The translations under genes were made by a program, and so were the position numbers. A DNA stretch of 52,682 bases, counting the filler, from Bipalium vagum (taxonomy: Eukaryota): the NCBI GenBank assembly GCA_037834085.1. It is 2 parts of 2 records of this genome, joined end to end, with 100 filler letters (N's around TTAATTAATTAA, not from the genome) between each part and the next. Parts side by side here need not be neighbours in the genome. Positions count along the whole stretch, not along the records: positions 1 to 23,023 come from JBBMKC010214252.1; 1 more part is not named here. The stretch is one strand, 5' to 3'. Below, one piece after another: positions 1,735 to 52,019 of this stretch. Numbering within the stretch: the first letter of the stretch is position 1; every line of letters starts with the position of its first letter. The notes under the pieces were generated by a model, which saw only the letters and a list, made by a program, of their open reading frames with translations, was not told where the DNA came from and ran no database searches.

Positions 1735-4270
1735 TCATACATTTTCTATTCTTTGTATTCTATTAAAATTATTAAAACTATTTCCTGTGAATTTAAATTT
1801 TATACTTTCTACTATTTCATAATTTTCTTCCTTACTTGAGTTAAACGGATTATTAGTATTATTTAACACTAAATTTCTTTTCTTTTCAAAAGTTAGTTTA
1901 TCTGAATTAATAATATTTTTAACAAAACCTTTTGTTTTACCAGTTGTAACTATTTCTTTTTTATTAGTACTCCAAATTTTCATGTGATAGTCTTTTGGAG
2001 CAGGTACGACTATTTCTGTTATATAAGATTCAATCCCATAATCTTTTCAACTTCTTCTGTTAAATCTCCTAAATTTTCTCCTTGTAATTTTTCTATTTTT
2101 CTAGCAGGCTTACATTCTTCGTGACTACAATTTTTATTTTCACAAGAATCATCAATAAATATTGTACTATCAGTATCACAATAAATTACTCTTTTATTTA
2201 ATGTTTCCAAAAGATTGTATAATCTTAATCTTGCATGATCAGTTGTAAATAATGCTATATAAATATTTGTAGTTTTACTTAGTTTTTTCCATTCTTCTTT
2301 TATATGATATTTCATCATCCAAACTTCTTCATTTAAAAAAATTGGATTTGGTTCTTTAATTTTGTCATCGAATATTATTTTACAAATACCATTATAATTA
2401 TAAACATATGAACATTTTTCAAAACCATCTCTCATTCCAAAATGTCCTTATAAACTAACTTAACAAATTTTAGCTATAAATCTTAAACCAGCATTAAATT
2501 TAATATTATCAATATCTAGATCATACGTCATATTTTCTGTTACAAATTCAATTTTTGTATTAATATCTTTTTCATTCTTACAATCAGGTTTACAATGTTT
2601 AGGTTCACTTTTACAACCAGATGCTTCCAATTTATATTTCATAAATATATTTACATAGTCTTCAAATAATCCTTTTCTTGTTTTTTCAAAATGTTCTATT
2701 TCATAAATTTTAATTAATTGATATCCTTTTTCAATTGCTTTAATTATTTCGATAGTTGACCAAGTTCCAACTAAACATCTTTCTTCATCATTATAATTAA
2801 ATTTTTAATTTCTAAAATTATAACATGTCCTACAATTTATTTTGCATGAATTAAGTTATATTTATTATTTAAACAAATTTTACATCTATTTATTTTATGC
2901 GAACTTCATTGTTAGAACCTTTGGTTCGATCCTGAATTTCAGTATTTGGACAACAACTGCTTTTAACATAGTGATTACAATGAATATTTATTTTTTCCAT
3001 ACATGTTTTACATAATATAAATAATAACTTGTGAGCATTTCCTATTTCTTGTTTATAAGGTAAAACTGGTAAATGTAAATTTCTTGGTGGTAAAATTTTA
3101 CATTTCATAATTCCAAAGTAACCACATTTTTTTACTAAATATTCTTGTGGTGAAATATTCAATATTTTTATAGGATGACCAACTGAATATTCATCATATT
3201 TATTTACAGTTGGATGCAATGAAACAAAATCTACATATTTGATTTTTTCAGTTTCACTTTTATGATATAATTTTATAGGTACGGTTCCTCCTCCATAAAA
3301 TCTTCTGTAGGTTTTAGTTGAGATAACTTGGGATCAATTTTAAAATTTTTAAAATCTTGATTTTCTAAAAGTTTTTCACATTCACATTCCAATAATTCTA
3401 TAAATTCTAATTTTGTATTTGTATTATAAATATATTTTATAATATTATTCTTTTTTCCTAAAGTTTGATTATTTAAAAATTCCATTGTTTTATTTCCTTT
3501 TTTAAAAATTTCTTCTTTATTATAACATTTTAAACAACCATGAAAATAGCAACTATTGAATTCATAAATATAATAAGTTTTAGAAGTTTGATCATAATAA
3601 AATTCATCAGCTTTGTTTGTTTTTTTATTAGCTCATAGTTTTTTCTCCTCTTTTTGCATGTTGAATATTTATATTTTTTATTTTACTTAAATATTCCAAA
3701 CAATGAACACAATTATGTGAATATATATTTTCAAAATTACTTAATCTTGGAATTCCAATTTCTTCATTATCAATCATAGACATAAATATTTCTGTACAAA
3801 TTTGAGCAAATGTCATATATTGCAAAGGATCCATATTTAATTTTTGGGTTTCTGATAAATTTATATTTAAAAATAAATCTCTAAAAATTAAAAAACCATT
3901 AGTTAAAATCAGAACATGAGATTATCTGTTATCAATATTAAAACATTTGAAAATTAAAAATTTCATTATTTTGTACTTTCTCAGTATGCCATTGTTTTAA
4001 TAAATTTTTTTCTTTATTATTATCGTTCATATAACTATAACCTTAAAATTCTAAATCTGGATATTTACTAATGTAATTTTGATTTTTTGTTGTATTGAAA
4101 TAATGTGGAAAATATCCTTTGGAATCTTTAGTCCCAAATGTTTCTGAAAAAGTTTTTAATGGACATAAAGTAAAATTTATTGAATCTATAAATCTTATTA
4201 AAATTTTTTATTTGCATGTATGTGACTTTATTTCTGAGCTAATTTTTTCAACTGGCAATTTATTTTGAAT
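1735..4270 (-). pseudogene. Protein-primed family B DNA polymerase of a Polinton/Maverick, fragmented
   Basis: Collinear ORF pieces: YVDFVSLHPTVNKYDEYSVGHP (DxxSLYP motif), PPRNLHLPVLP, KYKLEASG, NAGLRFIAKIC, IALFTTDHARLRLY, IYCDTDS, GENLGDLT, and upstream FIDSINF..PLK and KGYFPHYFN. Confidence 0.9.
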
Positions 4271-4279
4271 TAACCAACT

Positions 4280-5430
4280 CACAAGAAGTTGCATGGCCAC
4301 CTAGAACAGCACAGAGAAGGTAGTCTCTTTATTCACCGATAATCAACTAACAGAGATCCCAAACATTGGATCATCTGATCATCTGAATCATCTAATTTCG
4401 ACATTGAATTCTATATCGTGACCGGGTTCATCGAAAAAATTGCAAAACTTTGTGTATACGTCGGCCCGGAATCAGGTATTGCACTTCAAAATGAATACCA
4501 ATCGGAATTTTTTCACCTGCTCCCACTAAATAAGATGGAAGAATGGGAAATTATCTTCTGGACAATCCACTGGAACGGAGACCATTGGTTACTTTTCATA
4601 GCCGATAATAATCGAAAATCTACAATGTTGCTAGATCCACTAAGAGGAGAAAACACGGATGAACAAGAGGCATTTCATGGAATACTCAACCAACTTATCA
4701 ACATAATCAATAATCTCCTTAATATACCAGGATATATAAATCTGACCATGGTGTCAGAAGAAACACATCCACTACAAACCAATTTTTATGGTTGCGGAGT
4801 ATATGTATGCCAATACGCATATGATTATGCATACAGTCGTGACAGAATCAAATTTACAAAGCCGGAAGCGAGGAGGATAAGAAGCATTATTTCATTGGCT
4901 CCACACAATACGAACAACATACAGACCGCGGCGAAAAGCAACAAATCGTACGACAGAAAAAAGCCAACAATACCAGATGAAGAATTAATATTCAGTGACA
5001 ATCAATATAAAGTGGCGATACGCGACGCACCACCTGCTGCAATCAAACTTGATAGCCCCATAATGATATCATCGATAACTGGCTCATTCAAACCTGGGTA
5101 TGGTAAATCAAAGTACTTGGCTGATCATGAAAATGCGAAAATAAAAACCGATGAATTCTTATTATTCATCAAATATTATATGATTACTGGCTCAATGAAC
5201 CAGACTGATGCAATTCAACTTATCAAGAATTTTGTTAATAAAGACAAACAGCCAAGTAACCGGTCACCAATATCAAATGTCCAAAAACATCAGCACCCAT
5301 ACAGTCAACAACAAGAAGCAGGCTTTCAAAACTTCATTTAGTCAGAAACGTCTTTGCGAAAACTTTTTCAGAAAACAAGGAAAGATAAACTTAGCCTATC
5401 AATTACGGATGAAAGGATCAAAAATAGGAG
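4280..5430 (+). mobile_element. Fragment of a NeSL-clade non-LTR retrotransposon: Ulp1-like protease domain and linker (ORF 4418-5341)
   Basis: IFWTIHWNGDHWLLFIAD..LLDP..LQTNFYGCG gives the His/Asp/Gln/Cys pattern of C48 (Ulp1) proteases and matches the 47304 ORF (IIWPIHWQSNHWLIF..LLDP..LQGPGFDCG). GC content rises abruptly relative to the Polinton flanks. Confidence 0.75.
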
Positions 5431-5879
5431 GAGCTAAAATTGAATTTGCCATCTGGCAAATTTTTGTGTATTAATTTTTAAATAAACTCTTTCGTATTTA
5501 TTTTGAATTATATTAATAGAATTTTGTGCAAAATTTTGTATTATTAAATTTTTAGAATTATTTCCATTATAATTAACAGTTTCTTCGTTTTCCAACGGGT
5601 ATTGGTAAAGTGAAAACTCAAAAATTACGTCTTCAATATTTATTGTTTGTTCTGATTGTAAATTTTTTTCAAATCTTGTAAATAATTTATTTACTACTTT
5701 ACCTTTTATACATAAAGGAAAACAACTATGTCCTGAATAAATTAAAGAATGTAAAGGTGTCAGTTTAACATTATAATAATAATTATTATTTGTAATGGTT
5801 TCTAAAATACGATTTAAACAATTAGTAGTAGTTTTCTCTGTAATATCATTCGGAGAAATTTTAAAAGAAGTTGTTCAAT

Positions 5880-6260
5880 TTATTTATCATTCCGTTCAGC
5901 CTTTTGTGGAATTCTTGTTGTCGTTCACAGTTTGAAGGTCGCAGTGGTACCAGCAGTAGTGAGATTTTTTTTATCATTATCTGCGATAAAAAGCAACCAG
6001 TGATTGCCGTTCCAACGGATTGGCCAAAGTATTATTTCCCAATCGTCTTTGTTAAATGGTAATAAGCCGAAAAAACCTGATATGTTATCATTATACATTG
6101 CCAAGGCTGGTTCTGGACCCACGTATACGCAAAGTTTGAGATATTTTTGGGTCACATTATTCCGAATGAATGCTTCAATATCATAATTTGATAGTCAATC
6201 TGAAAATCTTGTTTCTTGAGATATCTTATCAAGTGATATATATGTGGATAACTTATTGTT
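5880..6260 (-). mobile_element. Second Ulp1-domain retrotransposon fragment, inverted relative to the first
   Basis: ORF 5925-6155 KLCVYVGPE..WEIILWPIRWNGNHWLLFIADN. The in-frame upstream sequence reads TRFSD*LSNYDIEAFIRNN, with TGA CTA at 6197-6192. Confidence 0.75.
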
Positions 6261-6597
6261 TGGTAAAGTTTATAGCATAGGTAAGTTTTGAAGAAATCAC
6301 ATTATTCAATTTGTTAATTTCCTCACAAAATTCTTTTTATGAATGTACTTGAGTCATTCATTGAATTTTTCGTTCATGTAGGTATTTACTTGAAAGTGCT
6401 TCGCTACTCCTGAACCCCAATCTTGAATTTTACTAAATTCTAAGTAAAGTAGATTAGATATATTAGAAAATGACTCGATTATCGCGCAATTTCGTAGAAA
6501 GCTGTGAATTGGTTTCTTGGCAAATGTAAAAAAATAATTGAAAAATTCTTAATATAACCAACAATATTAAGCAAAGAATAAAAATATCAAGAAAAAA

Positions 6598-9249: not shown

Positions 9250-10416
9250 TACAATAAGCACAAAAAATCTGATCACTATTAAATTAAGACAAATTTTCTT
9301 AAAACTTTCATTAATAAATTAATAACGTCAATATTTCGTAGGCAATCCATCATTGGCAATTACGGCTTGACATCTGTGTGGTATGCTCTCGACAAGACTC
9401 ATGAGGAAATCTGGTTTTAAATTTTTCCATCGAAGCGCAAAAGTTTAAATAAACCATTTTCATTTGTTGGATTTCTATTTGTCACTTGTTCTTCCAAAAA
9501 AATCCATAAGTTTTCAATAGAATTTAAATATTTTTATGTAAATGTTTTGAAATATTTTTCGCGTTGTTCTTCGGACAATTGTCATGCTGAAACACATAAT
9601 GACCATCTGGGAACAATTTTTTTAATGAAGGTATCATTTGCTTTGTTAGTTGAAAATTAATCGGAGATACCGGAATTCGAACCCGGGATCTTCACATGCA
9701 CATGCACTGCTCTGACCGCTGAGCTACATTCCCCGACTAACTTTCAATTTATCTCACATGCGTAATTAATATTCGACGATATTTTTCTTCATCCATTATT
9801 TAGTGAATTCTACAAGGATTTCCAAAATTATGTGCGGTGAAACATCCCCATGCCAAATGTCTTTGCTGATTAATAGCAGAGACAAAATGTTTTCTCACCT
9901 GAAAATGTGAGTAATACCCAGTAATCTGTAATTTTCATGTAATCTGTTAAGAATGGTTTTTGGTGATACATTCATCTCAATCTACTTTGATGGCAATAGC
10001 CGAAATAGTTCGAAAACTTACTGCCACAGAAACAATGTTTTGATCATCACCAATGGTTGTCTTTCTTTTCTTTCCACTGCCAACCTTTTTTTTGTAATTT
10101 GAAGTTTCTTTGAAATCTTTCAAACCTTTAGCATTTGACGACTGAGGTTTCCCAATTTTCTTTGATATTTCTCTTCCTGACAGTCAGCAAACTATCCTTT
10201 TAGAAAATCCACTAGCTTCACCATTTTATCTATAATAATAATCTGGACTAATTGAAATTACACAAAATTTTAATTAAAAAAAAAGTTTAGCTAAACAAAT
10301 ACATAATTTAATCGATTACAAATTCGATGTTAAAATATTTATTGTTATATAAAATTATATTAAGAAAAAAAAATATATTAAAAATAAAGTGATCGGATTT
10401 TTTTTGTGCGTAAGTA
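9250..10416 (-). mobile_element. Tc1-like transposon remnant with terminal inverted repeats
   Basis: TIRs TACAATAAGCACAAAAAATCTGATCACT (9250-9277) and AGTGATCGGATTTTTTTTGTGCGTAAGTA (10388-10416). Internal fragments VFQHDNCP, LNSIENLW, LVESIPHRCQAVI and SGKRKTT. Confidence 0.75.
9662..9734 (-). tRNA. tRNA-Ala(TGC)-like sequence, probably a pseudogene or SINE head, inserted in the Tc1 remnant
   Basis: GGGAATG-TA-GCTC-AGCGGTCA-GAGC..TGC..CCGGG-TTCGAAT-TCCGG-TATCTCC. The D arm, T arm and A/B boxes are recognisable; the anticodon stem pairs poorly. Confidence 0.7.
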
Positions 10417-25259: not shown

Positions 25260-27850
25260 ACTTTTCAATACCTCCCTTGTACATCAAAGACATTCGAAAA
25301 AAGTACACAATATCTTGAAAGCTAATCGACTCATCTCTCAACTATCAGGCCAAGGAAATCCATGTAATTCCTTCAAAAAGATTACTGTCTCTACTGATTC
25401 AAAACATTCATTTCTGCGCTGAAAGACCACTCAGCTTTAATATTTTTCAAGGATATCCACATTGTTACATACTGCTACCATTATATTAACTCTCCGGATG
25501 TCATTGTTACCAATCCAATAATATCAAAAGTCTTAGTCTTGAATTCATAAAAACTTATTTGACACTTAAAATGTTTAAAGACAAAACTATGATATTTTTT
25601 CCCTACTTTGACACATTAAAAAATTATTGGGATCTTTTCGTCTGCTATGTTTTGATTGAATCAATATACTGTCTGGATCCAGACCATTATGGCGACGAAA
25701 TGAGTGAACTTTTAAAAATTATCTCCACTTTTCTGACATACTTCCTTCTTGGGCAAATTGTATTTAAAATAACAAAAATAGGACCAGTTCAGAAAATGAG
25801 ATCTCCATCCTAAAGCGGTCCTCTAATATTTGGATATATTTACTCAATTTTTAACAGTAAATCATTAAACCTAATTAACATCAATAAAATCAAAGTAAGA
25901 ACGGCACAGCTCATAAGCAAGCAAATAAAAGATATTAAAGACTCATACGTCCACATGTAAAGGTACAAAACCCGTACATTTACAGAGTACAGCTCGCTGC
26001 CAAACTCCTGGATGACATTAAATAATTAAAATGTTCAAACGATGAAGCTAATAATAAAATTGTAAAATTTATATACGAGATGCGTCCAGTAAAGGAAAAA
26101 CGATTGTTTCTGAAACAATCATCAATAAAAAGACCTGTAACAGATTACAACCTTCGAAAAGTCTCCTTATACAAACCTGTGAGTGCCTTTAAATAATAAT
26201 TGACAAAACAGTAGCTGACTGCAATCCGTTTATACAAAAAATCTACGATTATTATAATAAAAAGTCAATCTCTCCACCTCCAGTTGATTGGCATCATACA
26301 GATCTCAAAAATCTAATAATACAAGGCCATTACTTTGACTTTTATCCACTCTCATCTGATGAAATTCATAGGATAATGAAAGGTGTTCAGAATACCGCAC
26401 CACGTCTGAGTAATATATCTTATTCAGATATAAAATACTGTGATCCGATCTACGAACTTCATCTTTTCTTACTAAACAGCATCTTGGCCAATCACTAAAT
26501 TCCTAAACGATGGAAATCTTTCAGAACACAACTTTTTCCAAAACCAATGAAGCAGGGTCAATATGATGACATAAACTATGACATCCAATAGCTTTTCCTA
26601 CAAAATTTTTGCTTATGCCCTTTATCATCAAATCTCAGGCTGGCTCACCAAAAGTAACCATTTGCATCCATTGCAAAAAAAATTTATAAACTTTCCATAA
26701 ATCAGTCACATAAATATCTCGGTATAGATTTCTGTGAAAAACTTAATTTACCTTCGTTCTCATTATTTTCCGATATCATTCAACAGCTAACCGAAATTGC
26801 AAATAGTATTCTCTACCTCTGGCAAAAATTTCAGGCATATACAATCTTTATCCATAGCAGACTACTTTTTATTTTCGCAACTATTACTTGTCGCCTAAAG
26901 ATCTGAAACACGGAAAAGATGCCATTGAATCAAGTAATAATTAAATCAATTCCTGGCCTTAGTTGTCAGTCATCTATTAAATAGTTGTATTCTTCTCAAA
27001 AGATTGGAGGAGTTGGTCTGGTCATAAATGAATATCATATAAAATCTCTGACGCAATGCTTCCAATTACTGTCCTCTGTTGATGACATCACTGCGAATAT
27101 TTCCATCTCTTCTCTTTGTAATTCGACCAAAATCTCAACAGGTTCTAGATTGTGCTCAACTGAAGATGTTCTGACATGGTTGTATAAAGGTGATAAACAT
27201 TGTCAACTGGTGGACAAAAATTGGAGCTGCTATCTCCCAACTGAAAAATAGGCATTCTATCACCCAATCATTCATATAAATGAAAAACACATTTACCTCA
27301 AATTTACCCAATGCCTTGAACCAGAAGCGAGGCATAAAGGCCTTATCAATCCTGGCGACTCAAAATGCTTATCAAAATTACTTCATACAATGGTACAAAA
27401 CTCATGGAACCACAAGAGTATTGGGTCTTCAAAACTGTCAGCAACACCAATATTTCAGGGATAAAATATCTCTCTCAGCCTGGTATTTTAATAAATGCAA
27501 GGCATGGAAGCACATACAGAGGATGTCGCAGATTCCCCGAATCAGAAGAATCACGAGCATATGTTCTTCTCGGATGTGTGCCTTCAAGAATATTTATTCT
27601 CTCTCGTCACAATTCAATTTAAGATTATCTAACTGAACAACTCTTATCTTACACAGAGGCGATAGTATATGTCAATGCTGAGAGTCAGTAGATTCAATCA
27701 ACACTGCACATTGACCTGCAAATTGAATTCACGAAATCAAAAAAACTAATTTTAATCGATATCAAATGCCCATTTGAGACTGAAAAACATCATCAAAACC
27801 TGGCACAGTACCACGATCTAATAGCTATTCGATAGCTTTTCGACCATGTT
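25260..27850 (+). mobile_element. Heavily decayed NeSL-clade non-LTR retrotransposon (Ulp1, part of RT, CCHC, RLE)
   Basis: IFFPYF..NYWDLFVC..IYCLDP; NTAPRLSNISYSDIK; IPKRWKSFRT; HKYLG; QKFQAYTIFIHSRL; LYSSQKIGGVGL; CRR..ESEESRAYVLLGC..RHNSI; LIDIKCPFE. Collinear with copies C and D. Confidence 0.8.
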
Positions 27851-32840: not shown

Positions 32841-33507
32841 TTTGGATTTTAGTTCGTCAAGGGAAATTTTCTCTGTGTAGGGATTGCTTAGTTCAAAAAT
32901 CGCCGGTCTGGAATTTGTTATATGGGCTCTAACGAGTGGAGCATCGAAATGACGGAGAAGTCCTTTTTGAGTGGCTTTATATTGGTATAAATGGTTGTTG
33001 GAGATAATTAGTAATTTATACAATGGTACCACGTTAAGAAGAGGAAAAATTGATATACAATAAATACAATAAAAAATGTGTAAAAAGGCAATATTGAAGC
33101 TATATATAAATTTACAGATGTTGTGATTTTAGAAGAACTAGAGCTTTATACCAGGGAAAACGGTATAAAACTCTAAGGATTGAAATTTATACAGAGGAAG
33201 GAAAAAAGAAACAATTTACAAGGGAGAAAAGGAGTGTACAATCAAGATTTGTACAAGGATAAACAATAATAAATTGATAGTCGTTTTTTTTACCTCCACA
33301 ATTGGTTTTTTGAAATATACAAATGAATATGTATACGATAAGTAATTATTTACATAGTAAGGGTAATTGTGGAGTATAAATATAAATGAAGATACTTAAT
33401 AATAAAGAATAATATATATATATATATTTTTTTTTCCCGACTTTTCAATGGATATTATTTACACAGTTAAAAGTATTTACAGAATTATTTTACAACGATA
33501 AAATGCC

Positions 33508-34285
33508 CTATATTGGTGGGCTTCTGATATGCACTAAGAACATATGGAAAGATTCACATATCGCGGTGTTGATGCTTTGATGGGCGATGTGACTGATGTC
33601 TTTTTCGAGTAGTCCAATTTTCTTCAGTGCAACATCATTTTTGGGGTCCCATGACCTCAAGGATCCAATGTTCAGGACATCAAGGCTGATCTCGTATCTT
33701 GTAGACATGTACATTTCTTGGACGATATTCTGATATTTCACTGCATTCTCCGTGCGATTTCGTTCAAAGTTTTCCAGAGAGTCATATGGCACTTGGACGT
33801 CAAGAATATGGATTTTTTTCTTGTCGTGCCGACGGATTATGATATCTGGTCAAGGTTTGTTGGTATTTCACTCGGAGAGGCATCAACTTCGACGTCGTAA
33901 TTCAGGTCTCTGAGGCAGCTAACAATTTTAAAAAGTACTTTGTTGTGTTTGATTGTTGTGGCATGGCTTTTCGATGGACAATGATTGAGCACATGCGGTT
34001 GACTCTCTGGCTGTGTCCTGCAGTGTCTGCACATGATGTTTCTGGATTTGGCTATGTTGAACGACCGGTAATTTAGGCCTAGGTTGTTGTTTCGGGCCTT
34101 ATATAGAAATTTCCATATCACTAGTGGTTGGTGAAATTTTGTTAATATGGTGTTGGAGTATTTGCTGAGGCTGGAGACTGGTATAATCCGTCCTTGCGAT
34201 TTGTGACTTTTCTGTAAAGTATCTCATGGCTACCGCTTCATGTAAATAGGCCGTGACTTCTTGAATGTTTTCACGGTTGAACGAA
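33508..34285 (-). pseudogene. Copy A CCHC knuckle and restriction-like endonuclease, frameshifted
   Basis: CRHC..ESQPHVLNHC..TIKHN, (R)PDIII..LDVQVPYD and GSLRSWDPKND, spread over ORFs 33837-34121 and 33508-33792. Confidence 0.9.
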
Positions 34286-34325
34286 TTTTGGTCCTGAGAT
34301 AGGCCTCTATCTGGTGGCTGCCTAG

Positions 34326-36692
34326 TCAGCTTTGCTCCAAGTCTGCGGCAGTGAGTGGAATGTCGCAGACGTCGGTTGATGTTGGCATTGTGGCCTTGAT
34401 GTGAGAGCTGATGTGCGAGGGCAAATTTTTTCGGGCAATCGCTTGGCCACAAATGCATCGGTACATAGAGTCCGGAGTGTGTTTGATTTGGTGATTATTG
34501 AGAAGGTGGGTGTCGAACCCACAGGCCTTGCCGTTATTAAAAGTGTATTTATTGTTACAATAGTTACACGTTAGGGAGTTGTAGGCTTTGAAAGTTGCTA
34601 TTGTTTCTGTATTGTCAATTGCTCCTGCGAAGAAATTAATGGCATTTAAATCCATGGAGCCATTACAAGATTCCGCTATGTCTTCCATGTTGATTGTTGG
34701 TTGAGATATCGTTTCATTTAATTCACTTTCAGAATCAAGGTCTGAGAGTGAGTCACAGCCGGGATTGGTAGCGTAAACATCGTGTGGTGTTGCGACAGGT
34801 GCATTGATGGTTTTGAGTGTTGTTTGGATTAGCGGCCGGGCGTTGTTTGAGGATGATTTTCTGGAAGAGGCGACTGATATAATAGATATATCATCGTCAG
34901 AGTTATTTTCATTGAATTGGGTTATCATTGTTTTTCGGCGTTTAAGAGGTTTTCTGGTGACGTGCGGGGATGTTTCGATGGTGTTCGTTTGCATAGTCTG
35001 GGTGCCGAAATCCCGCGTTTCAATCATAGTTTGTGTTTCAACCGTGGATCTGAATATCGGTGGAGGGGGAATGATATCATCATCATCATCATCATCATTT
35101 TTGTCATTGTTTTCTTCCGGTATTGATTCATCAATGACAATGATATCATCCTCTTCCGCTGGTGGAGGTGGAAGATAGTCTTCGTCAATGGAACAAGTCG
35201 GTTCGGCGTCGAGATCGACTTCCATCAATTGGGTTTCCGGCTCTATGATCAATTCTTGAGATGTTTCATTGATCGTTTCGAGAGATTTTATTGGTGTTGT
35301 TTTTTCGTCAGGATTGATGGTAGGCTTGGCAGGATTTTCGTGATTTTTGGTGGAGATTGATTTTTCGGGCGGAGCAAACCCGAAACCTATGATTCCTCTT
35401 TTTTCCATGTCCGGGTTGTACCGGTAATCCACGAGGAGAGGCATATTGCGACGATTTACCTTGATTTCCCGGTACGTCGCCCGGAACATGTTCGATTTTT
35501 GTCCATGTATTGGACGCCAGCCAGCGAAGATCCATCTTTTCTGTCCAATCAGATCTGGCCTTGGACAGTTTTCCCGGTTGTATTTTGGGAAATTGTAATT
35601 GGGAGCCGTTTTTGAGTTATTCGGCCTATGTGTTGGCTCCTTTATGGCATTTTCAGTTGATGGAGTTTCGTTAATTGGTGGATTTTGTTGTTTGATGTTT
35701 GGCATTTTTTCATTTAGGACTTTTTCGGTTGGCTTGGTCTTCTTGTTTTGAGTATTCTGATTCTGGTCTTTGTTAGATTTCATTTTTTCACTTCGTGGCT
35801 TTTGAGGATAGTTTTGCTTACGATTTTGCCCTTTGCTTTGGTTGACTGGCGGCTTCTTCTGCCAGTTTTTCTTCTTTCTATTCACGACGGTCCATCCCTC
35901 TTCGCCTGTGACCGTCACTTTCCTATCCCCGTTGGTGGCCTCGATGGTAAGGCTGGGGCCCTTATACCTATTCTCCGGGATCTTAACTTTTTCTTTAAAC
36001 GCTACTTTCTCGCTCTGCTTAGCGCCTTCTTCTTTGTCTCGCTTAAGCTCATTTCTTAAGTTCTCGATCATCCCTAATAAGTCTTGGATGGTGGCCGATT
36101 TTGAGTGACTGTTGGGTTTTTTTGAGGAATTTTTTGGGCCTGAGTTCTTATTGGCGCCATTATTTTTGCCAGTAGGGGTCGCAGTTGGCCGTGGTTGTTG
36201 GATGGTGGCCCCTACTGGTTCAATTGGGACTAACTCATAGAGCCGCCCATCGGATCCCCTAACAGTCTTGGTTAGCACTTCACAGTACGATGGGGTCAAC
36301 TTATCCTGAACGTAGCATCTAAAGTCTTTATTTGCCCCATCGGCTATTATCTGACATTTAGCCCTGGTGACTAAGGATGCCATGTACAACGCATTATACG
36401 CATTGTGTAAATGTATTTTAGTATAATAAGCTATAATATTCATAAATATATAGGTAAATACTTTTATACATTGAGAGATGATAAAGTAAAATGGGCCAAT
36501 GGGAAGCTGGGGATAAGTGCCAGTTCCCATGGGGAGATTACTCTCCTTTTCACCCCCCCGCGCATAATTGAAACATGAAATAGGATTTTTCCCGAGGGTT
36601 TTGGTAAAAAGTGGAGTTAAATTCAGGGAAAAGACATTGAAAATATGGGGGTGAGGCCCTGGAGCAGATGGTTGGAGGTCAATGCAGACCAT
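34326..36692 (-). CDS. Copy A N-terminal protein (788 aa): basic/disordered region, conserved central domain and two C2H2-like fingers; ends at the UGA-CUAG
   Basis: Long ORF homologous to 41682-44225 and 47443-49551. Fingers CNYC..HLLNNH and CIC..HISSH. Strong protein-like conservation begins at MASLVTR (ATG 36383). Confidence 0.85.
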   Translation of the reverse strand: MVCIDLQPSAPGPHPHIFNVFSLNLTPLFTKTLGKNPISCFNYARGGEKESNLPMGTGTYPQLPIGPFYFIISQCIKVFTYIFMNIIAYYTKIHLHNAYNALYMASLVTRAKCQIIADGANKDFRCYVQDKLTPSYCEVLTKTVRGSDGRLYELVPIEPVGATIQQPRPTATPTGKNNGANKNSGPKNSSKKPNSHSKSATIQDLLGMIENLRNELKRDKEEGAKQSEKVAFKEKVKIPENRYKGPSLTIEATNGDRKVTVTGEEGWTVVNRKKKNWQKKPPVNQSKGQNRKQNYPQKPRSEKMKSNKDQNQNTQNKKTKPTEKVLNEKMPNIKQQNPPINETPSTENAIKEPTHRPNNSKTAPNYNFPKYNRENCPRPDLIGQKRWIFAGWRPIHGQKSNMFRATYREIKVNRRNMPLLVDYRYNPDMEKRGIIGFGFAPPEKSISTKNHENPAKPTINPDEKTTPIKSLETINETSQELIIEPETQLMEVDLDAEPTCSIDEDYLPPPPAEEDDIIVIDESIPEENNDKNDDDDDDDIIPPPPIFRSTVETQTMIETRDFGTQTMQTNTIETSPHVTRKPLKRRKTMITQFNENNSDDDISIISVASSRKSSSNNARPLIQTTLKTINAPVATPHDVYATNPGCDSLSDLDSESELNETISQPTINMEDIAESCNGSMDLNAINFFAGAIDNTETIATFKAYNSLTCNYCNNKYTFNNGKACGFDTHLLNNHQIKHTPDSMYRCICGQAIARKNLPSHISSHIKATMPTSTDVCDIPLTAADLEQS

Positions 36693-36863
36693 CTGGTAAT
36701 TATAGTAATAAAAATTATATAATAGAGTATAAAAACTGCGAATGCGGCGGTCATTAATTGAAAGAGTTCTAAAAATTTTTGAAAATTTAGGCCCAGGAGT
36801 GTTAAAACAGACAATTTTTGAAATTTTAGAACTTTTGATGAGGCGGCGATCAATTTTAGGTGT

Positions 36864-45509: not shown

Positions 45510-45515
45510 GATCAT
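44568..45515 (-). CDS. Copy B proximal leader ORF (315 aa) starting at the ATG inside the U2 fragment
   Basis: ATG 45515 is U2 nt 22-24. The second half matches the leader ORFs of A and C (SPRRDESEAM..AEPWVN..SPRLPCKEASGESCGR). Ends at a small out-of-frame deletion relative to A. Confidence 0.5.
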   Translation of the reverse strand: MIPRVTYSINGGLSNEPSPALFGQLGESPASLQSGTFLQSQYQKYEKKLHLLQKVRKCAKSSCIETFSLDDRGSLYAKSGKISVQKPSFAVFLMTEKMVPTRFPDEASWITANQIRENLGRPSPNSNSSNSGRFPTPDPSPKSPRRDESEAMPRSAVPLAEPWVNCPRRYELQQCRYGSTYYDNQRFSPRLPCKEASGESCGRPNGRGQAELAGGKPTEGNLSNFWLKNQVFQNRNGNSYFCTPFINFIIDTYRFGTKEFIYDEFIPKYTQIFKFFIKIINFLNYKMIKTLNCQFLTNFNILGFKLKPNFYIIRL

Positions 45516-45536
45516 AGCTATGAAGCTAGAAGCGAT
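45501..45536 (-). ncRNA. RNU2: U2 snRNA 5' fragment starting exactly at +1, without the promoter
   Basis: ATCGCTTCTAGCTTCATAGCTATGATC-CCGC-GTGTA; the first 27 nt are identical to the 41304 copy. Confidence 0.85.
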
Positions 45537-47442
45537 TGATTGATTCTAATAACAGATGGTGAGTAGCTCCGTGTACAACCCCAAGATAAGTATAAAGATT
45601 TTCGGGAGAAACTGTTGGGATATTTTCTCCATAGATTGTGACTGTGGAGTTGGTTTTATTTGATAGATATCCACATTTTGATGGACGGAATTTGAGGTGG
45701 ATAGCGTCTGAGAGAGAAGAAATAATGTTGAGCCGTTCTTGGAGGCTTGATTGGCTAGGGGCAATGAGAACAAGGTCATCAGCATAGGCCAAACAAGAGA
45801 AATCATGCCCAAGAGTTTTGAGTTTGGGGGTCATGTTCTCCATTTTTGCGATGATAAAATTTATGCAAAGACAAAAGATTGTCATAGAAAGTGGACAACC
45901 TTGTTTCACGCCCTTATTGATCTTAATATAGCCAGTCTGAAGGTGAAAACACGAGTAGCTGGTGAAATTTTCTGAGTAGATGGCCTTCAGAAGTTCAATG
46001 TGAGTATCCGGAATGCCCATTTTATGAAGCGTAACCCATATGAGTTGGTGAGGGATACTTGGAAAGGCTTCAGAAATATCCAAAAAGCAAATATGGTGTT
46101 CTTTTTTGCTGGTTTTGGTCGACTCGATAATGCCGTTGATAATTGCATTATGTTCTCCACAGCCATTATCGTTGAAGAGGGCTTTCTGATTCCGGTGGAT
46201 AAGAGAATTTTGCTTTATCCATGATAGCATTCTGTTGTTAATGATCAGTGCAAATAATCGGTACGAAGTGTTGAGCACAGCAATGGGCCTCCATGATGAC
46301 ATGAGGTGGGAGTGATGGTCTTTCCCTGGCTTCAAAATTAGACTTGTTTTGAACCTTCTCCATTGCTGTGGGATAATTCGCGAGTTGATGATGTAATTGA
46401 ATAATGCGGACAGAAATTCACCTTCGGGATCAATAAGTTTCCAATCCTGATAATTGATACCATCAAGTCCGGCTGCTGATTTGTTGGAAGATTTCAGGGC
46501 ATCAATCACTTCTAAGGGTGAGATGGTGTCGAAGAGGTTGTTGAAAGGATGATTTGGGAAGTTGAAGAGAAGTGATTGGTTGATTTCTGGTGGGACTTCA
46601 GAGGAAAAATGATTAAAAATATCTTCGATGGTTGGAAAAGCGGTTGGTTTGCTTGATGGGAGGAGAGAGTTGAAGGTGTCCTTTGGATGATTTTCATATT
46701 GTTGCCGGAAATTGAAAGAAGATTTAATCTGGTTCTCCAGGTGTTGATGGGATGGAGTTTTCTTCTTTTTATTCTTCGCAAATCTTGATGGAAAAAGATC
46801 AGCGATTGCATTGCAGGCAGAGTCGAGGGCCTGTGCTGGATCAGCGTTGATTGATTGGAGTTTGCTGATCGATTCTAACAGCAGATGGTGAGTGGTTTTG
46901 CGTGAGCTGTTACGGTCCGGCTTTTTTGCTCTGGCAGCGAGAATGTTATCGACGAGATGTTGGATTTTACTTTTGAGAGCGGAAATGTCTGGGGCATTGA
47001 AGATTGTCGAATTTGCGAGGAAATCCATCGCATATTGGATAATGAAATATCCACAATCAAATCCAGGACCCTGCAGTGGCTGCGAATCGAGAGTGCTTTG
47101 ATCGATCGGGTTAGGATCAAAGGTGCAGCATGTTTTATTAATGACCGTGTTCAAAAGATCAAAAAGATGGAGTTGGTCATCTGCAAGGGTCTGAGAGGCT
47201 GGATCTAGAAGAAATGATTTTTTGGCAACCCGATCAGCCAAGAAGATAAGCCAATGATTGGATTGCCAATGAATTGGCCAAATTATCTTCTGCCAGTTTG
47301 CCATTTTTGTAAATGGGAAGCATTCGTAAAATTCTTTAATTTTACCCTGCGTTAAGGCGACTGCAGGCCCCGGTCGGATGAAAATATGATGATCGTTTTG
47401 GATGTGAGACCGGAGGAATGCTTCAATCTGGTGGCTGCCTAG
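45526..47442 (-). CDS. Copy C Ulp1-like protease and reverse transcriptase, 3'-truncated; in frame with the upstream ORF across TGA 47445-47443
   Basis: 46 sense codons (LGSHQIEAFLRSH..PFTK) precede MANWQK at 47304. Protease NHW/LLDP/QGPGFDCG. RT motifs SAAGLDG, WRPIAV, FLDISEAFPSI, GVKQGCPLS, LAYADDL and YTYLG. Confidence 0.92.
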   Translation of the reverse strand, partial: LGSHQIEAFLRSHIQNDHHIFIRPGPAVALTQGKIKEFYECFPFTKMANWQKIIWPIHWQSNHWLIFLADRVAKKSFLLDPASQTLADDQLHLFDLLNTVINKTCCTFDPNPIDQSTLDSQPLQGPGFDCGYFIIQYAMDFLANSTIFNAPDISALKSKIQHLVDNILAARAKKPDRNSSRKTTHHLLLESISKLQSINADPAQALDSACNAIADLFPSRFAKNKKKKTPSHQHLENQIKSSFNFRQQYENHPKDTFNSLLPSSKPTAFPTIEDIFNHFSSEVPPEINQSLLFNFPNHPFNNLFDTISPLEVIDALKSSNKSAAGLDGINYQDWKLIDPEGEFLSALFNYIINSRIIPQQWRRFKTSLILKPGKDHHSHLMSSWRPIAVLNTSYRLFALIINNRMLSWIKQNSLIHRNQKALFNDNGCGEHNAIINGIIESTKTSKKEHHICFLDISEAFPSIPHQLIWVTLHKMGIPDTHIELLKAIYSENFTSYSCFHLQTGYIKINKGVKQGCPLSMTIFCLCINFIIAKMENMTPKLKTLGHDFSCLAYADDLVLIAPSQSSLQERLNIISSLSDAIHLKFRPSKCGYLSNKTNSTVTIYGENIPTVSPENLYTYLGVVHGATHHLLLESINRF

Positions 47443-50400
47443 TCATGCTGACTCACGGTCCGCCGTGGTCAGTGGGATGTTGGTGATATCGGCATTCGAT
47501 TCAGTTGGTGCTTCGAGGTGAGACAGTAAATGAATCTTGATGGTCTCACGAGGGATTGAGATACCACAGAAGCATCGATAGATGGATGTTGGTGTTGGAT
47601 GGAGGTTGTGCTTCTTTTTAAGATGGTCGTCGAGGCCCCTAGATTTATTCTTTGACCATTGGTATGCTTTCCGGCAGGTATTGCATGCGACCCGATCAAT
47701 GGATGTAAAGATAGCAATGGTTTCGTCGGGTGTGTTTGGTAAAACACCCGCAAAGAAGTTAATGGTGTTGAGATTGATGGTACCATTGCAGGAGTCTTGG
47801 AGCTCCGTGCTTGGTCGGGATATATCAAGTTCGAAGTCATCATCGGTTAGCGAAAAGGAGTCAGGATCAGCTCTAGCTTCAGGTTGTTGTTGTTGTTGCA
47901 GAGGAGGAGGCGGAAGTGGCATGGCACGAATTTCAGCCAGTAGAGGCCTTGCACTGGATGTTGAAGCCCTGGATGACGCAATAGAGATGATGGAGACGTT
48001 ATCATCCGAGTCATCAGGGTTAGTGCGGTTGAAGAATGTTTTTCTCCGCTTAATTGGCTTGCGAGGGGCAATTGGCGAAATTTCTGTTAAAATATCACCC
48101 GTTTGTGTGGCCATCTCCCTCGTCTCCACATCCGTTTGAGTGGCTATCGTGGACCGAAATGCCGGTGGAGGTGGAATGATGTCATCGACATCGTCTTCTT
48201 CTGGTACGGGTTCTTCTACGATGTAAATATCTTCGTCAATATCCGGTGGAGGTGGAAATATATCTTCCTCAATGGAGCAGGTTGGCTCCGCATCAAGGTC
48301 AACCTCCATCTTTTGTGGTTCAGTTGGTATTTCTGTCACAACTGGAACCGTTGGATTGTCAGTTTGTTGATTGGATTGGTCCGGTTCGATAGAGTTTTCT
48401 GTTGCGTTTTGAATGTTGGTGGTGGTTGGTTGCACGGGCTCTTTTTCCTTCGGTTTGCTGATGGTCTTTTCGGGCGGTGCAAAGCCGAAGCCCACAATTT
48501 TGCGCTTCTCCATGTCTGGGTTGTACCGGTAGTCAACCAGGAGGGGCATGTTGCGCCGATTCACTTTAATCTCCCGATATGTCGCCCTGAACATATTGGA
48601 GTTTTGCCCATGTATTGGGCGCCATCCGGTAAAGATCCATCTCTTCTGCCCAATTAAATCCGGCCTTGGGCAGTTTTCCTGATTGTATTTAGGAAAGTTA
48701 TAGTTTGGAGCCGTTTTGGAATTATTCGGCTTATGCGTTGGATCTGGCTTGGTGTTTTTGGATATTTGCTTGGCGTTCGATGGAGTTTTTGGTTTCTCAA
48801 TGTTGGACGGTAGTTGGTTCGAATCCTTCTTGTTTGATTTATTCTTGTTGGATTCTTGCTGTTTATTATTCTTTTGGTGTGATGTGGTTTTATTTGGTTG
48901 TTGATTTTTATTTTGTGGATGCGGCGGATTTTTCGGCCTTTGGTTATCATGCGGCAGTTGTTGATTTTGCCGTTTGTTTTGGTTTTGGTTTTGGTGGTAC
49001 TTGACTGGCGGCTTCTTCTGCCAGTTTTTCTTTTTTCCTCCTACGACGGTCCATCCTTCTTCACCCGTAACCGTCACCTTCCTATCCCCGTTGGTGGCCT
49101 CGATGGTAAGGCTGGGGCCCTTATACTTATCGTCCGTATGTCTAACTTGTTCTTTACCTATTCCTCCAGATTGCCTAGCGCCTGAAGTCCCATCTCGCCT
49201 AACTTCAGCCCTAAGCTCATCAATCATCCGTATCAGGTCTTTAATTTCGGCCGATTTTACGTGACTCAGTTTTTTGTTATTCATTTTTGGGCCTGTGTTC
49301 TTATTGCCGCCTTTATGTTGACCGGCAGGGGTCTGGGTTGGCCGTGGTTGTATCTGCGGACCTGCCGGTTCGAGGGGGACTAGCTCATATAACCGCCCGT
49401 CTATCCCCCTAACAGTCTTGCATACAACCTCGGAATACGATGGGGTTACCTTATCCTGGTTATACACTTGAAAGTTTTTCGTAGCTCCATCGGCTATAAT
49501 TTGACATTTGGTCCTCGTGACCAAAGATGTCAGGAACAACGCATTGTACACGTTGTTTAGATGTATATAATTAATATACGAGGCAAAAATATATATAAAA
49601 ATATTTAAAAATACTTTTATACACTCAAAATATTAATAACTCAAATATAATAACAATAAGAGACGGGCCAATAGGAAGCTGGGGATAAGTGCCAGCTCTC
49701 ATGGGGAGATTGCGCTCCATTACACCCCCCCGCGCATAATTGAAACAGAAATTATGATTTTTCCCGGAGGTTTCTGTGAAAAAGTTCATTAAATTTGGGA
49801 AAAAATGAATAAATTTATGGGGTTGTAGCCCTGGGAGAGATGGCTGGGAGTCAGTGCAGTCCATCTGGGTATTTTTATAATAAAACATATTAAATATACG
49901 TTAAGAAGACTGCAATTGCGGCGGTCATTGGTCATTGATTTGTTAAAAAGTTTAAATTTTTTAAGGTGGAAAAGGCCAAAAGTCATGGTTTTTAAATTTG
50001 GATATCCTTGCATCTGGCGGCGATCAATTTTAGATATTAAACAATTAAGAAAGAGGATCGTCCGGCCTTTAATTTGATGTAAGATAAGCTCTGGGAGAAA
50101 ATAATTGAGAGTGTTGGAGACAAGCAAAGATTTAGAAAATGTAAGGAAAAACTTAGTTAGAAATTTACTCAAATTTCTAACTAAAGTGATGGTTTTAGAT
50201 TGTGCGTAACGTTTTAACAGAGCGATGGAAAAAGCTCGGGGAGGACTTATACGAAAGAGCACCGTTGAAATTGTACTAAATAGTACAATTTCGGTCTTGC
50301 GGATAACGGTGGAGGCCTCAGAAGTCCAAACAACAGAGATGGATTTACCCAGAGATATTAAATTGTTGTTTAAGTGTAAATTTAAATATTTTTGAGACGC

Positions 50401-51848
50401 AATATCTCTGGGTAATCTTATTCAAAAAATAAGGTGGAAGTATCATATAATAGAGAAAAAAATTCTCTATTATATGATACGAGAATTTTGGGCTAAAACT
50501 CAAAATTAAAAATTTATAAAAATTTTTGTTATAACCAGAATTTAAATATGCGTTGTTAGGCGCACATTCAAGTAGGTTAAAATGGCCTAAATAAAAAACC
50601 CAATTATTATAATAAAGACCGCACGCATTACAGGCTTCTATTATAATATAAATAATGCCAAACTTTAGCTTCAATTTGGCACTAAGAACGTTAAATTCAG
50701 ATAAAAATTGACAAAATAAATTTTTTGCCATTTTAAAATTAAAAATCTTAGTTATTTTGAGTGAAATCTCAAAAATTGGGCTATATCTGGTGGTAAATTC
50801 ATCATAGATGAATTCCTTGGTGCCAAATTGATATAAATTTAATATGAAAACAAATTGGGGGGTATTAAAATTAAAATCTTTACTTAAAATTTGGAAAATT
50901 CGATTTTTGTGACAACACTTAACTAAATTACCTCCGGTTGGCTTTCTACCGGCCAACTCGGCTTGCCCACGGCCGTTGGAACGACCGCAGGACTCCCCAG
51001 ATGCTTCCTTACAGGGAAGCCGGGGTGAGCAATATTGTAAGTCGAAAAATGTCGACCCATAGCGGCTCATCCATCCCCTGTCACTGTCAACACGATTTAC
51101 CCACGGTTCCGCGAGTGGCACCGCGGATTTGGGCATTGCCTCGGAATCGTCTCGTCGAGGACTTTCCATTGGTAGGCCGGGCAGTTGGATCCGACCAGTA
51201 TTCGCATTTTTCATAATTTCGACCGAAATTGTTTCGCCTTTTTTGCATTGGCGAACTTTGGCATTGCGTAAATGTTTGAATTTCAGTCCGAATTTTGCAT
51301 CTGATGTATCATTTGGAAGATCTCGTCGAGATCTATAAAGTGCTGTGACTTTATTTGGAATCGTAGCCGAATTCGTAGAATGGTCATTGATCGAAGTTCT
51401 GCATATGAAAGTGCGGTTGAAATTCTGGAGGAGTTTGAAATCCTCCAGAGATCTTGGGCTTCTTCGGATTGGAGCCGTCAGGATATCAAATTAATCGTCT
51501 TTGGAAGAGGCATCTGATGGTACCTCGCTTGACACCATAGCTGGAGAAATGGTGGAGCTGATCTTCGGCATGGAGGCGCCATCTTGGCATCCATCTTGGA
51601 TGGCCGATCTTTTCCTGGTAGAGCTGGGAACGGTTTTAAAATGAATGGTGGATGAAACTTTACCAGTTTTTGTGTTGTGTAAACCCAATGGGCAAACCAC
51701 AACACCAATTTTTTTCACATATTCGGAATTTGAGCAGAAACATGGCGGTTGCCATGCTGGAGTTCCCTCGGAATTCGAAGAGGTATCATAAATATTTCCT
51801 TTCATTTGGCTTTGGGATTGACCAAGAAGTGAACAGAGCTTTTTTTTT
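45565..51848 (-). mobile_element. Copy C: longest NeSL/Utopia-like element, 3'-truncated at the end of RT
   Basis: Leader, N-terminal ORF, UGA-CUAG, protease and RT occur in order directly downstream of a U2 fragment that retains its promoter. Confidence 0.92.
47443..49551 (-). CDS. Copy C N-terminal protein (702 aa) with two C2H2-like fingers
   Basis: Homologous to A and B. Fingers CNTC..HLKKKH and CFC..HLLSH. CTG at 49533 aligns with the ATG of A and B. Confidence 0.85.
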   Translation of the reverse strand: MYNALFLTSLVTRTKCQIIADGATKNFQVYNQDKVTPSYSEVVCKTVRGIDGRLYELVPLEPAGPQIQPRPTQTPAGQHKGGNKNTGPKMNNKKLSHVKSAEIKDLIRMIDELRAEVRRDGTSGARQSGGIGKEQVRHTDDKYKGPSLTIEATNGDRKVTVTGEEGWTVVGGKKKNWQKKPPVKYHQNQNQNKRQNQQLPHDNQRPKNPPHPQNKNQQPNKTTSHQKNNKQQESNKNKSNKKDSNQLPSNIEKPKTPSNAKQISKNTKPDPTHKPNNSKTAPNYNFPKYNQENCPRPDLIGQKRWIFTGWRPIHGQNSNMFRATYREIKVNRRNMPLLVDYRYNPDMEKRKIVGFGFAPPEKTISKPKEKEPVQPTTTNIQNATENSIEPDQSNQQTDNPTVPVVTEIPTEPQKMEVDLDAEPTCSIEEDIFPPPPDIDEDIYIVEEPVPEEDDVDDIIPPPPAFRSTIATQTDVETREMATQTGDILTEISPIAPRKPIKRRKTFFNRTNPDDSDDNVSIISIASSRASTSSARPLLAEIRAMPLPPPPLQQQQQPEARADPDSFSLTDDDFELDISRPSTELQDSCNGTINLNTINFFAGVLPNTPDETIAIFTSIDRVACNTCRKAYQWSKNKSRGLDDHLKKKHNLHPTPTSIYRCFCGISIPRETIKIHLLSHLEAPTESNADITNIPLTTADRESA

Positions 51849-51853
51849 ATCAT
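49625..51853 (-). pseudogene. Copy C leader frame, broken by one TAA and several frameshifts
   Basis: ORF pieces 51491-51904, 50345-51214, 49789-50262 and 49625-49888 match the A and B leader translation in order. The first two are in the same frame, separated by TAA 51493 and 92 sense codons. Confidence 0.55.
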
Positions 51854-51874
51854 AGCTATGAAGCTAGAAGCGAT
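51849..51874 (-). ncRNA. RNU2: U2 snRNA 5' fragment (nt 1-26) at the head of copy C
   Basis: ATCGCTTCTAGCTTCATAGCTATGAT, followed by A9-GC-TCTGTTC. Confidence 0.85.
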
Positions 51875-51990
51875 AAAAAAGAGGAGGGAGCGACCGCGGG
51901 ACATGCCGTGAACATAGCCATGTCTAGGGTTTTTTATGTAACATTTAAAAATTGAATATTTGACGATAAAAAGTGAAAAAACGACGTTTC
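51875..51990 (-). promoter_or_regulatory. Putative U2 promoter region, second copy
   Basis: Near-identical to 41305-41420 (GAGGAGGGAGCGA.CGCGGGACA.GCCGTG..TAGGGTTTTTT..AAAAGTGAAAAAACGACGTTT). Confidence 0.7.
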
Positions 51991-52019
51991 TATGTTTATT
52001 TGCGTTGAGATTTCGATAA

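Follow-up and report, generated by a model that had tools for sequence, protein, structure and literature searches.

Results

Copies of the element in the window

The window, that is, the whole analyzed stretch of 52,682 nucleotides from Bipalium vagum, consists of two joined stretches (positions 1 to 23023 and 23124 to 52682) of a 441-Mb eukaryotic assembly. On the minus strand, a decayed fragment of a retrotransposon family denoted here D (about 5864 to 6521; 87 to 93% identical to genomic loci L002 to L006 and L009; hereafter, the 6150 copy) encodes the N-terminal half of the Ulp1/C48 protease domain of ORF2 (5876 to 6194), with the catalytic His present and the Cys half missing. The conserved Trp position of this protease is occupied by an in-frame TGA (6197 to 6195), a candidate readthrough stop, followed by CTA (6194 to 6192) at positions +4 to +6 in the type II readthrough context; the same CTA also specifies the Leu in the W-L motif of the protease. 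An earlier, sequence-only reading had translated this junction as RFSD*LSNYDIEAFI, and we recovered the same translation. The annotated ORF start that it had placed 14 codons farther on is found at that position but is GTG (6155 to 6153), not AUG; no AUG occurs in frame before codon 32. The 6150 copy carries a frameshift near 5985, breaks at ~6270 relative to L006, and has just 24 open codons upstream of the TGA; it is a dead, decayed fragment, and the evidence on recoding comes from its relatives.

Two further copies on the minus strand, also named in that reading, contain TGA-CTA in the same register. Copy C has an ORF1 of 729 codons from stop to stop (47446 to 49632), with a low-complexity region, a small-residue motif, and two zinc-finger-like motifs, followed by TGA-CTA (47445 to 47440) and then GGC; its ORF2 (45529 to 47442) encodes the Ulp1 protease and a reverse transcriptase (RT) and is truncated by the 5′ end of copy B. 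Among the rows listed from one run, with contigs of unknown kind that may derive from the source sample, no change was seen at 47440 to 47445, and these data were not used. In copy A, ORF1 is open for 845 codons (34329 to 36863) and ends at TGA-CTA (34328 to 34323), with ORF2 internally deleted ~13 codons past the stop. A second family-D fragment, from another subfamily, lies on the plus strand (4278 to 5504; Ulp1 domain open from 4379 to 5341). As had been noted, its junction is scrambled, with 11 bases (4380 to 4390) where TGACTA is expected, and is uninformative; its closest relatives, L104/L127 (91% identical) and L027 (89%), retain TGA-CTA.

The window holds several other features. Copies A, B, and C are nested (33500 to 52000), the 5′ end of copy B breaking the RT of copy C at ~45530; a similar junction is present in L064, so these elements may insert into each other. 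A 5′ portion of a U6 snRNA gene, together with the DNA preceding it (41632 to 41696, plus strand), adjoins copy B ORF1 at ~41697 in the opposite orientation. Broken fragments of a Polinton-like protein-primed DNA polymerase B (Pfam DNA_pol_B_2; 1735 to 3632, minus strand), a weak tRNA match (36 bits; 9662 to 9733, minus strand), and decayed RT-bearing fragments resembling family E, in which no junction was found (25490 to 27636, plus strand), were also identified. The low-complexity ORF1 regions (47446 to 49632, 34329 to 36863, and in L061) contain several TQT-type short motifs, which we take to resemble dynein light-chain binding sites.

Two ORFs in one frame, separated by a TGA

Near-intact copies elsewhere in the genome begin with a long, variable ORF1, at the end of which are two zinc-finger-like motifs; a single TGA and ORF2 follow. 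In families C and D, the two ORFs make up a single frame parted only by the TGA, which falls on the codon of the conserved protease Trp and is followed by CT. Behind the TGA, ORF2 is intact in five families (1106 to 1144 codons) and encodes the protease, the RT, and CCHC and endonuclease-like motifs. The Ulp1-like protease lies N-terminal to the RT (Pfam Peptidase_C48 and RVT_1; PDB profile and fold matches to Ulp1/SENP); the C-terminal CCHC and endonuclease motifs were recognized by eye, the corresponding zf-RVT and RmuC matches being weak and below the cutoff.

By domain order, these are NeSL-like non-LTR retrotransposons, with the qualification that their relatives in the tree carry no clade names. 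The order of N-terminal zinc fingers, Ulp1-like protease, RT, and endonuclease motifs is that of the NeSL clade (PMC4640811), and NeSL-1, Utopia-1_TSP, and R5/LIN share with the present elements the N-terminal zinc fingers, Ulp1-like cysteine protease, RT, and, as judged by eye here, putative CCHC and PD-(D/E)xK-like endonuclease motifs (PMC4640811, PMC3636483). NeSL and R2-group elements are described as having a single ORF (PMC3636483), whereas here the ORF is split by a conserved TGA. A target-gene flank of the R5/LIN kind (28S rRNA or tRNA genes) was not found at 12 long loci, several of which end inside the element; at these loci, there was no rRNA, tRNA, U2, or SL match.

Families C and D, whose RTs are 44 to 50% identical to each other or to distant C families, form a single clade with those seven of the closest database proteins (see below) that were placed in the tree (SH-aLRT 98 in a quick tree with single-ORF outgroups). 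Because C and D form one clade, their stops are homologous, that is, one ancestral stop retained over a long branch rather than a product of convergence. The sequence-only reading had taken the shared TGA-CTA of a distant family as independent support for recoding; with RTs ~45% identical, it attests to long retention of one stop and not to an independent origin. The arrangement recurs in an independent data set: in a JGI metagenome contig (L193), which has only short matches of 67 to 79% to the genome loci, zinc fingers are followed by TGA-CTA and then the protease. The metagenome scan gave 15 loci; the junction was read in L193, and the remaining 14 were RT matches that were either short or distant.

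The closest database proteins (P0001, P0003 to P0008, P0124, P0146, and P0160) all begin, judging from the protein sequences alone, at a Met past the position of the stop. The first homolog search returned 2 matches, and a search of longer proteins for a fused C-type form yielded 4 distant ones (25 to 28% identity), which is weak evidence.

The stop and the following two bases are conserved across junctions

Five protein or family searches contributed 30 loci each (the best of up to 150 matches per search), and 80 further stretches were picked by place; the junctions thus represent a sample of top matches and hand-picked stretches rather than a census. After exclusion of 4 rows from families E and F and 1 duplicate misregistration, the 133 registered rows left 128 C/D junctions. 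TGA is present in 109 of these and TGG in none; the TGG majority that would have refuted the earlier reading is absent. The remaining 19 reflect point decay, truncation, or indels, and two of them still contain TGA-CTT out of register. The hexamer TGACTA occurs 15 times in the window, three of them on the same codon of homologous proteins; given this coincidence and the count of TGA among homologous junctions, its presence in the 6150 copy is not due to chance.

The codon after the TGA is CTA in 75 of the 109 junctions, CTT in 22, CTC in 8, and TTA, ATA, CAA, and ATC in 1 each. Most junctions therefore show the type II context (in-frame UGA followed by CUA or CGG), with CUU and CUC as variants. 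The proposed retention of CTA holds for family D (43 of 44). In other families, CTT or CTC is used throughout, and the conserved core is accordingly TGA-CT rather than TGA-CTA. The bases at +4 to +6 nevertheless do not vary freely among Leu codons: +4 and +5 are CT in 105 of 109, and CTG is never used. Since the Leu belongs to the protease W-L motif, only the choice of codon (CTN, as opposed to TTR or CTG) can be regarded as a nucleotide signal. Among 4-fold sites, the third position of this Leu codon varies least in both families, with 0 changes on the D tree (44 of 49 rows kept), compared with a median of 5 (range, 1 to 8; 11 4-fold sites), and 4 changes on the C tree (48 of 60 rows kept), compared with a median of 9 (range, 4 to 16; 10 sites). 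Another Leu column in D (+21) is nearly as invariant, with 1 change, so the constancy of CTA alone is modest evidence.

The reading frame is conserved on both sides of the stop. A zinc-finger motif was found in 53 of the 86 junctions examined; in 43 of the 53, an open frame connects the last finger to the stop over 40 to 47 codons, and linker indels therefore keep the frame. For the 55 codons after the stop, pS among D subfamilies is ~0.6 to 0.9 and pN is 0.13 to 0.34 (9 loci; raw values were used because dN/dS was saturated, with 1 usable pair). In C, the median dN/dS is 0.13 upstream and 0.11 downstream of the stop (11 pairs). These ratios indicate purifying selection on both flanks.

These observations bear on several explanations other than readthrough. 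A nonsense mutation shared by dead or nonautonomous elements might be suspected, given that decay has affected most copies, among them the 6150 copy. However, five families have intact ORF2s behind the stop, the stop context is fixed while synonymous sites are saturated, and the same stop is found in L193, which makes this explanation extremely unlikely. The earlier claim of a selected recoding site, as opposed to a shared nonsense mutation, is thus well supported by the TGA and TGG counts, the selected flanks, and ORF2s of more than 1,100 codons.

Nor is the host likely to read UGA as Trp generally, through an altered or ambiguous code. The TGA does stand at a Trp position, and TGA is also seen in eight true Trp columns, in 17 cells altogether, but these cells are scattered in decayed copies, and the true Trp columns are mostly TGG (39 to 42 of 47 to 49 in D and 56 to 59 of 60 in C). 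Furthermore, six long ORF2s contain 10 to 17 TGG codons each and end in TAA, TAG, or TGA, and the stop of families E and F (see below) lies off the Trp position; a change of code is accordingly highly improbable.

A-to-I editing, with UGI read as Trp, would restore exactly the conserved residue. Retrotransposition of edited RNA, however, should leave TGG copies, of which there are none among the 128 junctions, and in neither C nor D is the stop covered by a conserved duplex. A 5′ G is, moreover, a disfavored ADAR neighbor, and we consider editing very unlikely. Removal or bypass of the stop by cis- or trans-splicing, with TGACTA as a branch-point-like signal, is comparably remote. TGACTA does resemble a branch point. 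NeSL elements have also been linked to spliced leaders. But selection at the protein level acts on codons on both sides, right up to the stop; the D subfamilies L017 and L018 lack AG in the first 30 bases downstream; and spliced RNA should yield stop-less copies, which were not seen among the 128 junctions. Finally, selenocysteine insertion was rejected: there was no Rfam SECIS match in 13 sources, and the position is that of a Trp, not of the Cys type.

The stop lies within the predicted protease fold

Several comparisons place the stop at a defined position of the protease. In a profile with X at the stop, X aligned to the Trp of the single-ORF relative P0067 (hhalign probability, 71.5), and by eye, other single-ORF relatives have W-L-x-D-x-x-I at this position; a host SENP-like gene has YLNDNII there, and a family-E copy (L149) has TGG in the register of the C/D stop. 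The spacing from the stop to the catalytic His is 63 (C) and 66 (D) residues, compared with 66 between W448 and H514 of Ulp1, where W448 lines the substrate tunnel (PMC9603560). A structural model across the stop, with X at that position, has a mean pLDDT of 88 (83 for the ten residues before the stop) and matches Ulp1 over its length with a TM score of 0.75. The predicted protease fold thus extends across the stop.

The main rival to readthrough is termination at the UGA followed by reinitiation on ORF2, at a downstream AUG or an adjacent non-AUG codon, yielding two proteins. This is a described route for the two-ORF non-LTR elements SART1 and LINE-1 (PMC5972666, PMC10275272); in SART1, it needs structure downstream of the stop, a role that the E/F hairpin (see below) might fill, and the predicted proteins of close relatives all start at a Met past the stop. 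In these elements, however, there is neither a stop-start overlap nor a conserved downstream AUG among the 34 junctions compared: the first AUG lies anywhere from codon 10 to codon 381, and in 15 of the 34, it is past the catalytic His, which would be lost. The +1 codon is never CTG, and CTG is the usual near-cognate start. A protein restarted at the Leu would lack both the Trp position and the section of the modeled fold encoded upstream, and the frame is conserved through linker indels, which also counts against reinitiation. On balance, we regard it as unlikely.

Families E and F have a different TGA site with a hairpin

A Pfam search identified two further families, E and F (L149, L151, L159 to L163, L146, L150, and L153, all outside the window), with RTs 34 to 44% identical to those of C and D. 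In these elements, a sense codon occupies the Trp position, and an in-frame TGA lies farther upstream, by ~30 codons in E and ~200 in F; it takes the form TGA-CA[T/A/G] in 29 of 30 junctions. The TGA is followed by a predicted hairpin with an 11-pair stem that starts 14 bases from the T of the TGA; 94.7% of cells are paired, covariation is slight (3 cells with a two-sided change), and the fold is more stable than shuffled sequences, with z of about −3.2. The hairpin pattern alone had 40 exact matches in the genome and 0 in the control; of the 30 that were fetched, 28 have a TGA 10 bases before the hairpin. An uncompensated A-A mismatch is present in 9 of the 40. The window contains no E-type hairpin, only 1 chance-level match.

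No conserved 3′ structure was detected in C or D within 300 bases by RNAalifold and a pair scan, and the 6150 and copy C sequences fold no better than shuffled ones (z, 0.75 and −0.32). Single-sequence folds point to family-specific helices in some C subfamilies. Families E and F branch outside C/D in the tree with outgroups but group together in another tree (93/94, not starred), so that an older hairpin site and a derived Trp-codon site are no more than a suggestion. As a separate observation, the first Ulp1 domain of E-type ORF2s (L147, L149, L152, and L158) is followed by another protease-like repeat, which is degenerate.

Discussion

The conserved in-frame TGA very probably is a site of programmed UGA readthrough of the alphavirus and mammalian UGA-CUA type. 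UGACUA is the type II readthrough hexamer; UGA-CUA alone gives 1.5% readthrough in human cells (PMC13517186, PMC4132726), and a 3′ structure is conditionally required (PMC13517186). The alphavirus and mammalian UGA-CUAG sites share this hexamer with the CTA junctions (PMC13517186, PMC4132726), and the family C sequence UGA-CUA-GGC is the context given for OPRL1 and for Ross River and Getah viruses. In alphaviruses, the polymerase (nsP4) is encoded behind the stop, as it is here, and the E/F hairpin starts ~10 to 14 bases from the first base of the stop, where viral stimulators are listed at +9 to +16. Unlike the type II viral and mammalian cases, the present one, known from sequence alone, involves a cellular non-LTR retrotransposon, whole families with CUU or CUC variants, and no conserved structure in C and D. 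Two of these features count against readthrough: position +6 is A, T, or C depending on the family, UGA-CUU and UGA-CUC being outside the classic context, and C and D are without a conserved 3′ structure.

Other systems offer partial parallels. In gag-pol of murine leukemia virus (MuLV), too, an in-frame stop divides a protease-RT polyprotein from an abundant protein upstream, but MuLV is an LTR retrovirus with a UAG and a pseudoknot, and its stop precedes the protease, whereas in C and D, it lies inside the protease fold (PMC5009743). SART1 and LINE-1 are non-LTR elements with two ORFs, of which ORF2 is expressed at a lower level than ORF1, by way of a stop-start overlap or a spacer and AUG, neither of which is conserved here (PMC5972666, PMC10275272). 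The described routes to ORF2 in non-LTR retrotransposons are reinitiation and StopGo/2A. The available portions of three sources (PMC3846280, PMC5035012, and PMC7650587) contain nothing on readthrough. More broadly, the literature searched, as far as its text was available, contained no report that non-LTR, NeSL, or R5 elements use readthrough or carry an in-frame stop. R5 has two ORFs, and the stop may already be noted there. Thus, a known recoding signal is present in an element class for which no report was found, and the feature is real and selected.

Under readthrough, most ribosomes would stop at the UGA and release the ORF1 protein, and at the leaky UGA-C, a few percent would insert a near-cognate amino acid and produce an ORF1-ORF2 fusion. 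Trp, the inserted residue to which the motif points, would restore that motif, and partial readthrough would set a high ratio of ORF1 protein to RT, as it does in MuLV. More speculatively, the protease of the fusion would cut at the small-residue motif just before the zinc fingers and release an R2-like finger-protease-RT-endonuclease enzyme. This motif (GG, GA, or AG after a hydrophobic residue) was matched in 31 of 39 rows of C, D, F, and L193, mostly 14 to 32 residues before the first zinc finger (~47745 to 47735 in the window) and, in F, after the stop. It resembles clan CE cleavage sites, and its conservation makes self-processing of the fusion possible.

As a tentative scenario, which we consider more likely wrong than right, this lineage of restriction-endonuclease LINEs evolved a retrovirus-style mode of expression. 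Readthrough would set the ratio of ORF1 protein to polymerase, and its site would have moved from UGA-CA with a hairpin (E/F) to the Trp codon of the substrate tunnel (C/D), so that only the right inserted residue gives an active protease, which cuts before the fingers to free the R2-like enzyme.

If true, readthrough, a route described elsewhere for retroviruses and RNA viruses, would be an added way to ORF2 in non-LTR retrotransposons. The natural junctions, more than 100 in number, amount to a mutational scan of the UGA context, covering CUA, CUU, CUC, CAA, and CAT, with and without a hairpin. There is also a consequence for annotation, namely that these proteins are truncated by gene callers; their closest relatives in the database all start at a Met inside the protease. 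Finally, the finding bears on the purpose of the Ulp1-like domain in NeSL elements.
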